Source of the DNA: a virus
Taxonomy: Duplodnaviria > Heunggongvirae > Uroviricota > Caudoviricetes
Direction: 5' to 3' (one strand)
IMG/VR virus record: IMGVR_UViG_2897346870_000003
Span: 1-36,958 of that record
DNA length: 36,958 nucleotides
Shown here: in pieces, positions 1,132 to 3,454 of the stretch
How the letters are laid out: each line of letters starts with the position of its first letter
How positions within the stretch are numbered: position 1 is the first letter of the stretch
Made by a program: the position numbers and the translations under genes
Notes under the pieces: generated by a model
What the model was told of the DNA's origin: nothing
What the model saw: the letters and a program-made list of their open reading frames with translations, nothing else
Databases searched by the model: none

Positions 1132-1354
1132 TCAAAATCCGTTGCAAAAGTAATGAGTTATTTTTCTTAATTACTGGCGTTACCAGCTCTCCAACTAACT
1201 CGGCGTCCTCGCGCACTCGCCATAACCGACCTTGTTTCATTGCCGGTGGACAAAACAAATTCTGCTTAGCATAACGACGCAATGTGGAAACGCTTGGAGG
1301 ATTACTTCTGTATTTTTCAGAAGCCCATTCTTCAAGAGTTAACATTTGAAGCAT
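1109..1354 (-). CDS. xis: Excisionase (lambda Xis-like)
   Basis: 81 aa; MLTLEEWA...RRYAKQNLFCPPAMKQGRLW resembles lambda Xis as recalled; overlaps int start; AAGGTGA Shine-Dalgarno upstream. Confidence 0.8.
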   Translation of the reverse strand: MLQMLTLEEWASEKYRSNPPSVSTLRRYAKQNLFCPPAMKQGRLWRVREDAELVGELVTPVIKKNNSLLLQRILIDGSQTA

Positions 1355-1427
1355 ATGCGATCACCTTATTACTTCACTAACTGTTCAGTCTCTGCATATC
1401 GACCCTGCACGGTCGGTTAGTTTCTCC

Positions 1428-1516
1428 ACAAAACAGAGAAGAACACCTGCGGTGGCAGCAGCCCGGATGGATTGGGTTATGAGCCCGTCGTCCGATGATG
1501 CTCTTCTCTGTTTTGT
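1428..1516. repeat. 15-bp perfect inverted repeat (ACAAAACAGAGAAGA / TCTTCTCTGTTTTGT) flanking a 59-nt GC-rich spacer; part of a structured non-coding region
   Basis: Read directly: 1428-1442 is the exact reverse complement of 1502-1516. A further 10-bp stem at 1525-1534/1552-1561 follows. Confidence 0.7.
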
Positions 1517-1780
1517 AAAAAGGACGGTACCAGCCGGAAGCAAGGGTACAAGCTGGTACCGCCAAGACTACACACAGCATAAAGTTGTGGTGCCGGGTGC
1601 CTCCCGGTGCCTGGCGAAGGTTGTACACCAGACGGGTGGGTATCCACAGAAGGTCGACTGTCAGCCTCAACCTTAACCCGCGTGCGCTGAGCCGCATTCA
1701 CCACAACGCTAAGGATTCTCTCTGGTTGAAAATACTTAGCTGTTATGTGCCTGCTTTTAGCCACATCAGGCGAGGTGGAC

Positions 1781-1840
1781 CTGGTTATTCCCCAACAACA
1801 AGGATTCGGTTAATCTGGTTATCCCCAACAACGCAAAAGG
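1781..1840 (+). repeat. Two direct repeats CTGGTTAT(T)CCCCAACAAC immediately upstream of the 1848 ORF (candidate regulator-binding sites)
   Basis: Read directly: CTGGTTATTCCCCAACAAC at 1781-1799 and CTGGTTATCCCCAACAAC at 1815-1832. Confidence 0.6.
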
Positions 1841-1847
1841 AAAAGAA

Positions 1848-2282
1848 ATGTCCGGTAATATCTATACGCTGTACAAATCCCACTGTGAAAATGTTGGAAA
1901 GTATCGGGGCATTGAAATCAGTGGGGTAGTGTCATCAGTCGAAATAAGCAAAGTGGAATCAAGGGCAACATTACTTACTCTTCTGGACCTTGTCTTACAT
2001 GAGCACCGGAAGAAATTCGGCACTCCCTATAATCAGTTGAATGGGAAAAAGGCTCTGGTTCACCTTATTCTGATGAAGCATCACTGGATGCCAAAACAGA
2101 TTAATGAGATGAAATTTGATGAACTTCTTCTTTCAATTCAGGATGAACTCACACTTGATAAAATAAGCGTAACCGCCCAGAAATTTTTAGATTATCGAGA
2201 CTGGAGATCACAAATTCATCACTTTGATGATTTTGATGAAAATGAATGGGATCCTAATTTGTCTGCACAATATCTAAAGTAG
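1848..2282 (+). CDS. Hypothetical protein (144 aa), rightward accessory gene convergent with the leftward early operon
   Basis: ATG with AAGGAAAAG Shine-Dalgarno; no family recognised from the sequence. Confidence 0.6.
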   Translation: MSGNIYTLYKSHCENVGKYRGIEISGVVSSVEISKVESRATLLTLLDLVLHEHRKKFGTPYNQLNGKKALVHLILMKHHWMPKQINEMKFDELLLSIQDELTLDKISVTAQKFLDYRDWRSQIHHFDDFDENEWDPNLSAQYLK

Positions 2283-2460
2283 CATCCCGTGATAAAACCG
2301 TGATTTCCTGATCCAGTTTTTTTAAGGAGTCTATTGTTTCCTGTCGATAAGACAGCAATTCACGAAGCTGGTTTATAGCTGCCAGCTTCTTTGTCATCCA
2401 CTCGTAAATTTCCTCATTTGTGTATCCGGGCGCGACGATTTTTGGTTCTGTTTTGTGCAT
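2254..2460 (-). CDS. Hypothetical small coiled-coil protein (68 aa), first gene of the leftward early operon
   Basis: Start placed at the internal ATG (MHKTEPKIV...) because it is preceded by a strong GAGGAGGTG Shine-Dalgarno; sits downstream of the pL-like promoter. Confidence 0.6.
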   Translation of the reverse strand: MHKTEPKIVAPGYTNEEIYEWMTKKLAAINQLRELLSYRQETIDSLKKLDQEITVLSRDATLDIVQTN

Positions 2461-2519
2461 TTCACACCTCCTCAAGTTATCAGTTACTTGTTGATGGGGA
2501 CCAGATTGTTAAAGAGCTA

Positions 2520-2543
2520 AGCGTCCTGTAGGGCGCTTTTTTG
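2520..2543 (+). terminator. Rho-independent terminator on the plus strand (7-bp stem AGCGTCC/GGGCGCT, loop TGTA, T6)
   Basis: Hairpin followed by TTTTTT read directly; on the minus strand the stem is preceded, not followed, by the A/T run. Confidence 0.55.
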
Positions 2544-2610
2544 TTGCTAACGAATCATCCTGGACTTCATATGCCCCAGGCGGCTACTTCGTGGGCGTCC
2601 TGCCTGTTCG

Positions 2611-2655
2611 TTGTTTCTCTTGGGTACATTATGTATCTCATGGGTACATTGTCAA
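2611..2655 (-). promoter_or_regulatory. pL-like promoter (minus strand TTGACA-16-CATAAT) overlapping OL operators
   Basis: Minus-strand -35 at 2650-2655 and -10 at 2628-2633. ATGTATCTCATGGGTACAT (2631-2649) has the same 19-bp architecture as the operator at 3436-3454. Confidence 0.55.
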
Positions 2656-2694
2656 GTATGAAAAAACCTGCCGAAGCAGGTTCATAGACATTGA

Positions 2695-3369
2695 TTAGGC
2701 TTTGATTTTGTATCTTCTTGGTTTTCCTGAGAAAATCACTGTACCAATTATAGAGCAATTACCGTTGATTTTAATGTAAGGCTCAGGCCAATTTGGGTTT
2801 AACGCTTTGAGATAACGCTGTGTCCCATCTTCTATCAACCTTTTGAAGGTGGTTTCACCTGTATCGTGCATCAGTGCAATAACGTCGTCACCGTGGCAGG
2901 CAGGTACTTCAGGATCGACAAAAATCATGTCTCCCGGGCGGTACTCATCAATCATTGAATCACCTATCACCCGCAAGATATAAGTCATTTCCCCACAGGG
3001 TACAGGGCAGGGATACGTTTCTGCTGTGCTCAAATCAACCTCAGAATATCCAACTTCTTTCCATGCTCCGGCCTGTACCCATGATATGACAGGGACTAAT
3101 GTGATTTGTTTATTAGTGATTGAAACATCAGGTTTTTTTGTGATGTTCGTTGTCTGGTGTTCTTGATCGAGCCATCCGACAGGCAGGTCGAAACATTTTT
3201 CGATGTGTCGTGCCATGCTGTCACCGATATTTTTAGTAGCACCATCTCCCATAAACCTGCTGGTCTGGGTTGGCTCGCGATCAATCATAGTGGCAAAGGA
3301 AGAATTCCCGCCAACACCATCTCTCAGTTTTCTGGCGTTAGACCGCCGGATGTCATGGATTGTTTTCAT
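2695..3369 (-). CDS. cI: CI-type repressor with LexA-like S24 autopeptidase domain
   Basis: 224 aa; N-terminal HTH region and C-terminal S24-like segment (LVPVISWVQAGAW...RVIGDSMIDEY); divergent from cro across an operator region. Confidence 0.92.
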   Translation of the reverse strand: MKTIHDIRRSNARKLRDGVGGNSSFATMIDREPTQTSRFMGDGATKNIGDSMARHIEKCFDLPVGWLDQEHQTTNITKKPDVSITNKQITLVPVISWVQAGAWKEVGYSEVDLSTAETYPCPVPCGEMTYILRVIGDSMIDEYRPGDMIFVDPEVPACHGDDVIALMHDTGETTFKRLIEDGTQRYLKALNPNWPEPYIKINGNCSIIGTVIFSGKPRRYKIKA

Positions 3370-3375
3370 AACGAA

Positions 3376-3454
3376 ATTAAAACCCTTGTACCGTTAAGGT
3401 ACAAGTATCTTGAAGGTTCATTTCAATCATGTAATATGTACACCGGAGGTACAT
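3376..3454. promoter_or_regulatory. OR region: perfect 21-bp palindrome CTTGTACCGTTAAGGTACAAG (3385-3405) and operator ATGTACACCGGAGGTACAT (3436-3454), with candidate pRM and pR
   Basis: Palindromes read directly. Minus-strand TTGTAC-17-TTTAAT ends about 7 nt before the cI ATG, implying a leaderless cI mRNA; plus-strand TTGAAG...TAATAT is a pR candidate. Confidence 0.6.

Follow-up and report, generated by a model that had tools for sequence, protein, structure and literature searches.

The closest described relatives of the first of the two RNAs discussed here are the small RNAs (sRNAs) of the STnc100/PasD family, known from Salmonella and from enterohaemorrhagic and enteropathogenic Escherichia coli (EHEC and EPEC). 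PasD, a relative of STnc100, is a prophage sRNA found by Hfq RIL-seq (ligation of interacting RNAs, then sequencing) and confirmed by northern blot, and it has many mRNA partners (bioRxiv 10.64898/2026.05.13.724894). Canonical STnc100 copies lie in phage late regions, 75 nt downstream of stx2B (PMC12370729). The present analysis concerns positions 1377 to 1847 of IMG/VR virus record IMGVR_UViG_2897346870_000003, a stretch of 36,958 nucleotides of a Caudoviricetes virus, the whole of which is referred to as the window. The window opens with the left arm of a lambdoid prophage of the e14/SfV type, and the studied region lies between the excisionase gene (xis) and a rightward reading frame.

Two further precedents bear on this position. 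The put element of phage HK022, about 70 nt in length, forms two stem-loops just downstream of the early-left promoter (pL), and HK022 is a case in which antitermination is achieved by RNA alone (PMC9378689). In E. coli K-12, DNA damage induces the e14 genes ymfH, xisE and intE together (PMC11228462), and the three are given as a single operon (PMC12132413); the e14 counterpart of the studied region is thereby transcribed along with xisE and intE.

The region is very probably a non-coding locus, read from the minus strand and made of two RNA modules, namely an STnc100-like RNA and a three-way-junction RNA (Table 1). Two covarying folds lie on the xis/int strand with a terminator between them, the order of terminator and junction is conserved, and so is the position between pL and the early-left genes. 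The current annotation of such sequences is "hypothetical protein", "YmfH" or none, and reading them as two structured RNAs corrects it.

The first-pass annotation of the window had described a GC-rich, structured, non-coding region with an inverted repeat, a short stem, tandem repeats and two direct repeats, and every one of these features was found where it had been placed. The arms of the inverted repeat (1428-1442 and 1502-1516) show perfect 15-bp complementarity around a 59-nt spacer, and the repeat extends to 25 nt at 84% complementarity (1428-1452 and 1492-1516). The 10-bp stem (1525-1534 and 1552-1561) is 100% complementary, and the direct repeats, CTGGTTATTCCCCAACAAC and CTGGTTATCCCCAACAAC, directly precede the ATG at 1848. 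The GC content is 0.54-0.565 over 1401-1800, versus 0.34-0.46 in most flanking 200-nt windows. The tandem repeat CCGGGTGCCT/CCCGGTGCCT is present at 1593-1612, but it is really a 5-bp minus-strand hairpin, CCGGG-AGGCA-CCCGG, and not an independent repeat. More generally, the listed features are real but not separate: leaving aside the direct repeats, which are treated below, they are parts of the two minus-strand folds. The description of the region as a non-coding, structured-RNA locus between a strong pL-like promoter and xis/int is retained.

Folding of the minus strand over 1377-1780 yields -164.9 kcal/mol (z = -5.7, with none of 100 shuffles as good), and the plus strand, with z = -3.3 against shuffles, is less clear. 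The region matches 2,770 of the 5,426 complete E. coli genomes, as well as SfV, SfII, SfIV, ST64B, mEp460, cdtI and Stx2/Stx2c phages, and it is 89.6% identical to the open reading frame (ORF) called ymfH in K-12. According to BLAST, a module of 171 bp (1395-1565) moves separately, being 94-97% identical in Stx2/Stx2c phages, mEp460 and cdtI, with dissimilar sequence on both sides. The module edges at 1395, 1565 and 1778 are sharp, and the elements are exchanged among phages.

STnc100-like RNA and terminator

When the whole window was scanned against Rfam at gathering thresholds, no match was obtained. A permissive scan aligned positions 1514-1737 of the minus strand with the full length of STnc100 (RF02076, model positions 1-206), at 41.1 bits and E = 4e-7. 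A known RNA family does therefore match here, where the first-pass annotation had been unable to find one. A 95%-identical IMG/VR homolog (L030) reaches 49.1 bits, above the STnc100 gathering score of 47. Given the borderline score of the window copy, it is treated as a divergent STnc100 subfamily. The first module belongs to a known family of prophage sRNAs, of which it is a diverged representative at a new place in the genome.

Ten homologs were folded independently: those of the window, e14, ST64B, Cronobacter phiES15, P1, SJ46, a variant at locus L040 (the core of which resembles that of Stx2a_WGPS2), and three canonical STnc100 copies, carried by Stx2a and Stx2c phages and by a Klebsiella phage. 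All of them adopt one architecture, in which a 9-bp closing helix surrounds four hairpins. Compensatory changes are found in 15 of the 30 pairs of a 9-sequence alignment, 92.9% of the cells are paired versus 35-47% when the partners are slid, and the covariation score is 0.40 versus at most 0.12 in the slid controls. The strands of the closing helix are GUUGUGGUG/CACCACAAC in the window, GUUGCGGUG/CACCGCAAC in P1 and GCAUGGUG/CACCAUGC in the Stx phages; the helix has the form xUGGUG/CACCAx, and the invariant hairpin adjoins its 3' strand. No other part of the family is as well conserved as this hairpin, of which the window contains one copy.

In comparison with STnc100 and PasD, the window copy has the same closing helix followed by AAU, the same order of hairpins, the same invariant hairpin CACCGGGAGGCACCCGGCACCA and CGCGGG motif, and likewise an intrinsic terminator at its 3' end and a location in a prophage. 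The motifs GGUGAAU, CGCGGGUU and CACCGGGAGGCACCCGGCACCA are shared with the canonical STnc100 copies of Stx phages. The differences are that H2 and the central hairpins diverge in sequence, that the score falls below the gathering score, that the copy lies in the pL leader by xis and int rather than close to Q, stx, nanS or the esterase and lysis genes of the late region, that it has no clear promoter of its own, and that a three-way junction follows it. The reach of the family is thereby extended from late regions into the pL leader and the P1 ban operon.

At the 5' end, the 38-nt boundary (Table 1) is 92-97% identical in many phages with differing flanks, and 1778 is where the region ceases to be homologous to SfV and e14. 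Inspection by eye shows a weak sigma-70 match upstream of 1740, cTGAtg-16-CATAAc. A sigma-54 promoter in the 38-mer was considered and rejected, since the GG-N10-GC spacing present in the window is, by eye, absent from the SfV-type version. At the other end of the RNA body, the centre of the single-stranded tail, GCUGUGUG(U/A)AG, is found again in many genera, including cases in which the body has diverged, and is a candidate seed or Hfq-binding region.

The 10-bp stem of the first-pass annotation is, judging from its sequence, the predicted intrinsic terminator of the STnc100-like RNA, a GC-rich stem followed by UUUUU. The U-tract follows the stem on the minus strand only, the plus strand having no T-run, and both the DicF and the STnc100 models align the stem as a terminator stem. 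In other genera, different hairpins stand at the same place, each followed by U5-7. The terminator scan missed this element because its loop exceeds the limit of the scan. The likeness to DicF, an sRNA of the Qin prophage, is weak and does not go beyond the terminator stem: the match has 19.4 bits (E = 0.3), far short of the gathering score of 48, and the seed region of DicF is missing.

Phage P1 combines a dicF-like region with an STnc100-like core in one operon. In its ban operon (L129, 68.6-71.7 kb of the record) there are a dicF-like region, tRNA-Asn, tRNA-Thr, the STnc100-like core and tRNA-Ile; the core (70077-70206 of the record) lies directly upstream of tciA and has no terminator. The operon is RNA-rich and resembles lambdoid late regions. 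In Stx2a_WGPS2 (L125, 2672-3263, minus strand), L040 and mEp460, a longer non-coding leader of about 480-590 nt lies between pL and the shared terminator-junction module. The closing helix GUUGUGGUGAAU...CACCACAAC is retained in this leader, for which Rfam gave no match at E <= 1. The leader may be an enlarged relative of the STnc100 fold.

Three-way-junction RNA

The 15-bp inverted repeat is modelled as the closing stem of a second RNA, a three-way junction that starts at the base next to the terminator. The loop of the repeat matches, by BLAST, the sequence found right after tRNA genes in Klebsiella lambdoid phages. The core ACGGGCUCAUAAYCCAAUCCAUC was scanned in IMG/VR and in one genome per species. 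With phage records added, 55 distinct versions were obtained (from IMG/VR, the phage records and 23 species genomes), and they represent about 20 species of Enterobacterales. These include Escherichia, Shigella, Salmonella phages, Citrobacter, Enterobacter, Kosakonia, Leclercia, Klebsiella, Raoultella, Mixta, Erwinia, Buttiauxella and Phytobacter. The core is present once in the window, with 0 occurrences expected by chance.

Independent minimum-energy folds gave an identical three-way junction in every example folded. The closing stem P1 is about 19 bp long in the window and 6 bp in the Klebsiella class; arm P2 carries at its tip a nearly invariant apex of 19 nt, which holds GGG-CUCAUAA-CCC and persists across genera while the stems vary; and P3 is highly variable in sequence and length, with 45 variants among the 55 versions. 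In a gap-free alignment of the inner part of P1, P2 and the apex, 94.3% of the cells are paired versus 35-51% in slid controls, and six pairs have changed on both sides versus 0-1 in the controls. Position 3 of P2, for instance, is G-C, U-A or A-U, and position 5 is A-U, G.U or G-C. The counts for P1 are biased upward, since its 3' strand was located by best complementarity; P2 and the apex are fixed by position, and the placement of P1 agrees with the independent folds. The junction, which shows clear covariation, matches no family of Rfam 15. Searches of the literature found neither RNA described at this locus, and the junction motif was not found in the accessible papers.

Given the frequent G.U pairs, which would be A.C mismatches on the plus strand, the junction is read on the minus strand. 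It is hardly credible that the structures of either module act on the plus strand or as DNA, e.g., as a recombination boundary or a protein-binding palindrome. The sharp module boundaries, the exchange among phages and the z-score of the plus strand would suit such a role, but the conserved G.U pairs would be lost, the U-tract and the Rfam match are on the minus strand only, and the compensatory changes keep pairing rather than sequence.

The junction occurs in two contexts, at the head of early-left operons and at the end of phage tRNA arrays. In about 20 species it comes directly after the U-tract of a terminator, with zero bases between, the terminator hairpin differing by lineage. In Klebsiella and Raoultella phages it comes directly after tRNA-Arg or tRNA-Asn downstream of the Q gene, and its closing stem is followed by NCCA. 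One IMG/VR contig (L100) carries two versions, one of the terminator type and the other with the GGCCUG closing stem of the Klebsiella class.

The apical hairpin GGG-CUCAUAA-CCC reproduces the defining anticodon arm of initiator tRNA (tRNA-fMet), with three G-C pairs and a CAU loop. The likeness to tRNA extends to the class C copies, which are located within tRNA arrays and possess a 6-bp acceptor-like stem and an NCCA end. The junction differs from a tRNA in having neither a D arm nor a T-loop consensus; its "anticodon" arm consists of 7 bp, an internal loop and 3 bp; and the closing stem of about 19 bp in the window has no CCA after it. Neither ARAGORN nor the Rfam tRNA model recognises the junction, ARAGORN reporting 0 tRNA genes in the window and, at the Klebsiella loci, only the neighbouring true tRNAs. 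The possibility that the element is a true tRNA or an attP remnant was also rejected, given the negative ARAGORN result and its location inside the prophage, far from the int-distal end.

It is very unlikely that the junction acts as a mimic of the initiator anticodon arm, serving as a decoy or docking site for a host or defence factor that reads this arm, such as a VapC-type toxin cleaving tRNA-fMet, MetRS, or the 30S P site with IF3. Although the near-invariance of the 19-nt apex across genera, in the face of varying stems, and the presence of NCCA-ending copies in phage tRNA arrays would agree with such mimicry, the argument is one of sequence resemblance, which could simply reflect descent from a phage tRNA(CAU) gene. 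Moreover, the apical loop is CUCAUUA in ST64B and UUAAUAA in K-12 e14, and class C has a G.U in the 3-bp stem.

The architecture of the junction is also that of the Rfam C4 consensus, represented by the C4/CI antisense RNAs of P1, P7, P4 and N15 (RF01695): a three-way junction, in which a long closing stem encloses two hairpins, situated in an operon leader, with tRNA-like features that suggest RNase P processing. The junction could accordingly be imagined as an RNA of this type, excised by RNase P and pairing with the same transcript, serving RNA immunity or as a brake on the early-left genes. We regard this as quite unlikely, and the same holds for the corresponding effect, i.e., that the pairing would block translation or cause premature termination. 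The leader position and the NCCA ends of class C, which resemble RNase P substrates, speak for it. However, the C4 model gave no match at E <= 10 with lax filters over 1100-2700 or 1395-1530, although the same model detects P4 CI (74.9 bits) and SfV C4 (82.3 bits). The apical sequence is unrelated, no a/b target sites were found, nor any complementary site at a conserved position within 1.3 kb upstream or 0.7 kb downstream in 27 loci, the late-region context in Klebsiella does not fit, and the true isrK/C4 module of SfV is located elsewhere. Pairings of the closing stem with 2077-2100 and of the invariant hairpin with 2003-2023 were treated as chance, the sites being unconserved and inside the variable cargo gene.

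The SfV module just mentioned (L128, 5792-5993, plus strand) comprises isrK (64 bits), a weak, sub-threshold c4-a1b1 (21 bits) and C4 (82 bits) at the orf36/orf37 boundary of a rightward operon; none of these three families is found in the window at gathering thresholds. Roberts, Allison and Verma reportedly described, in 2007, an SfV immunity mediated by transcription termination. A later paper cites their work for superinfection immunity mediated by non-coding RNA (PMC3475682). We had considered the studied region as that immunity locus, a proposal now withdrawn, as the true isrK/C4 module of SfV fits better and is probably the subject of that paper.

In the K-12 e14 copy of the junction (L001), the apical loop is altered to GGGUUAAUAACCC, and P2 contains a mismatch. 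These changes are consistent with decay in a defective prophage, hence K-12 may be a poor model for the junction.

Proposed role at the terminator

In SfV, ST64B, mEp460, Stx2a_WGPS2, phiNP and phiES15, the elements are flanked by the repressor gene on one side and by the first early-left genes on the other, and no N-like gene is found in that interval in any of the six. Lambdoid phages without N must nevertheless pass a strong terminator in order to express their early-left genes, including xis and int. Given that the two RNAs are sited exactly at this terminator, they are obvious candidates for the control of excision and of early-left expression.

In the window, the candidate pL promoter (11 of 12 matches) is identical in sequence to that of SfV. 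It is flanked by repeated GGTACA operator-like motifs (TGGGTACATT; window 2543-2660, minus strand), and GGTACA recurs at 3385-3450. The predicted pL transcript would run leftward through the region into xis and int. The leader of about 80 nt that follows pL is also conserved in SfV; it is not similar to HK022 put and might be functional itself.

We hold, with moderate confidence, a composite reading in which the leader from pL to xis and int combines an sRNA gene, a terminator gate and a tRNA-like processing element. The terminator would set the 3' end of a stable STnc100-type sRNA, probably Hfq-binding like its relatives, and would at the same time gate transcription into xis and int. Transcripts reading through after SOS induction would carry the junction, which may serve as a tRNA-like signal for processing or stabilisation (RNase P-type "punctuation") or may give a conserved host factor a place to dock. 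The NCCA after the closing stem and the placement directly after tRNA 3' ends, both seen in class C, are hints toward an RNase P substrate. A more specific version, suggested by the sequence of the apex, is rather doubtful: the junction may be a functional initiator-tRNA mimic, processed by RNase P, that serves as a decoy or docking site (for a toxin cleaving tRNA-fMet, for MetRS, or for the 30S P site) and couples terminator read-through to early phage expression or counter-defence.

Several points weigh against the composite reading. The window copy scores 41.1 bits against the STnc100 gathering score of 47, and that of SfV 39.5 bits. The promoter scan called no sigma-70 site for an independent sRNA, and no convincing promoter is seen. 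The pL-leader context is unlike that of canonical STnc100, found close to Q and stx in the late region, and the P1 core, having no terminator and leading straight into tciA, suggests a cis role in P1. As for the junction, P3 is weakened in the window copy, the apical loop is degenerate in the K-12 e14 copy, and RNAduplex found no complementary target at a conserved position for the apex in flanks of 1.3 kb upstream and 0.7 kb downstream at 27 loci, a search from which weak or distant targets could escape.

The absence of an N-like gene ahead of a strong terminator, and the position of the RNA just upstream of it, can also be read as a cis-acting antitermination element comparable to put, a multi-helix RNA that would let polymerase from pL pass the terminator without N protein. 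HK022 offers the precedent of an RNA that acts alone (PMC9378689), the P1 core stands in an operon leader without a terminator, and the position downstream of pL, upstream of the early-left genes and before or around terminators is analogous to that of HK022 put and of lambda nutL-N, the phage itself having no N-like gene. Such a role is nonetheless unlikely. A blastn comparison (word size 7) of window positions 1354-2700 with the HK022 immunity region gave only chance-level matches, hence there is no sequence similarity to the pL/put region. The architecture is a five-helix junction of about 125 nt, versus two stems of about 70 nt, and it lies about 900 nt from pL and not beside it. Canonical STnc100 copies, furthermore, have their own promoter-like sequences and terminators and are found as discrete sRNAs.

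The ymfH reading frame

A 106-aa frame related to ymfH is open on the minus strand across the terminator and the two covarying RNA folds. Among 41 homologs and e14, the variable columns are distributed over the codon positions as 27/30/32, i.e., with no bias, and the aligned lengths of the frame range from 321 to 337 nt, with differences that are not multiples of three. Pfam and NCBIfam yielded no match for this ORF, and the Prokaryotic Genome Annotation Pipeline (PGAP) labels an identical sequence as a frameshifted pseudogene. Taken with the overlap with the RNA folds, these observations indicate that the frame is spurious.

That the region encodes a YmfH protein of about 103-106 aa, as annotated in K-12, is thus highly improbable. 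In its favour, the frame is open here, a related one is annotated in K-12, and a clone overexpressing ymfH triggered RcaT, the toxin of retron-Sen2 (bioRxiv 10.1101/2020.06.22.160242). However, a coding sequence is at odds with the lack of third-position bias, with indels that shift the frame and with the missing family match, and since the frame looks non-coding, the effect of the clone on RcaT could stem from the RNA.

Features of the locus

Table 1. Features of the studied region and its surroundings (window positions).
Feature	Positions	Strand	Remarks
STnc100/PasD-superfamily structured sRNA, about 220 nt, multi-helix	1517-1740	minus	Rfam, folds, covariation
5' hairpin of STnc100-like RNA	1740 to 1708	minus	
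Closing helix H1 of STnc100-like RNA	1707-1699 with 1592-1584	minus	
H2 of STnc100-like RNA	about 1696-1683	minus	then variable hairpins
H4 of STnc100-like RNA	about 1633-1609	minus	
Invariant hairpin CCGGG-AGGCA-CCCGG	1607-1593	minus	
Single-stranded tail UGCUGUGUGUAGUCUU	1583-1564	minus	between closing helix and terminator
Conserved 5' boundary, 38 nt (CCUCGCCUGAUGUGGCUAAAAGCAGGCACAUAACAGC)	1741-1778	minus	possible weak promoter or 5' element
Intrinsic terminator (predicted)	1517-1561	minus	stem 1561-1552 / 1534-1525, 17-nt loop, then UCC and UUUUU (1521-1517)
Three-way-junction RNA, about 89 nt	1428-1516	minus	starts at base next to terminator
Junction P1	1516-1497 with 1447-1428	minus	closing stem (modelled), about 19 bp
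Junction P2	1495-1489 with 1469-1463	minus	7-bp arm
Junction apical hairpin	GGG 1486-1484, CUCAUAA 1483-1477, CCC 1476-1474	minus	
Junction P3	1462-1449	minus	one U.C mismatch in window copy
Conserved 3' flank GGAGAAAC...GGGUCGAUAUG	1395-1427	minus	shared module ends at 1395; GGAGAAAC after P1 in most genera
ymfH-like ORF, 106 aa	1377-1697	minus	judged spurious
Two direct repeats	1781-1799 and 1815-1832	plus	inside constant leader before variable cargo gene
Candidate pL promoter	2655-2628	minus	TTGACA-16-CATAAT, 11/12 matches, just downstream of repressor gene
Integrase gene	1-1131	minus	window start
Excisionase gene (xis)	1109-1354	minus	Pfam Exc match
ECs1072-family cargo gene	1848-2282	plus	family match NF033230; 144-aa ORF
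Terminator of ECs1072 gene	2519-2538	plus	promoter/terminator scan
ymfJ-like small ORF	2254-2475	minus	overlaps 3' end of cargo gene
LexA/cI-like repressor gene	2695-3369	minus	
cro-like gene	to right of studied region		

Direct repeats and plus-strand cargo

The direct repeats, which the first-pass annotation had included in the structured region, belong to a cargo slot and not to the RNA module: the homology with SfV and e14 stops at 1778, the leader that contains the repeats fronts unrelated ORFs, and the cargo gene has its own terminator. This constant plus-strand leader (1741-1832) precedes at least four unrelated ORFs in different prophages, and the second CCCCAACAAC always abuts the ribosome-binding site of the variable gene. 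The SfV and e14 types have another leader instead of the repeat leader, one that contains a covarying hairpin. A type III toxin-antitoxin system formed by the repeats and the 144-aa ORF was rejected, as the ORF is of the ECs1072 family and the repeats precede several unrelated ORFs. Positions 1741-2545 of the plus strand form a swappable cargo ("moron") slot, antisense to the pL operon.

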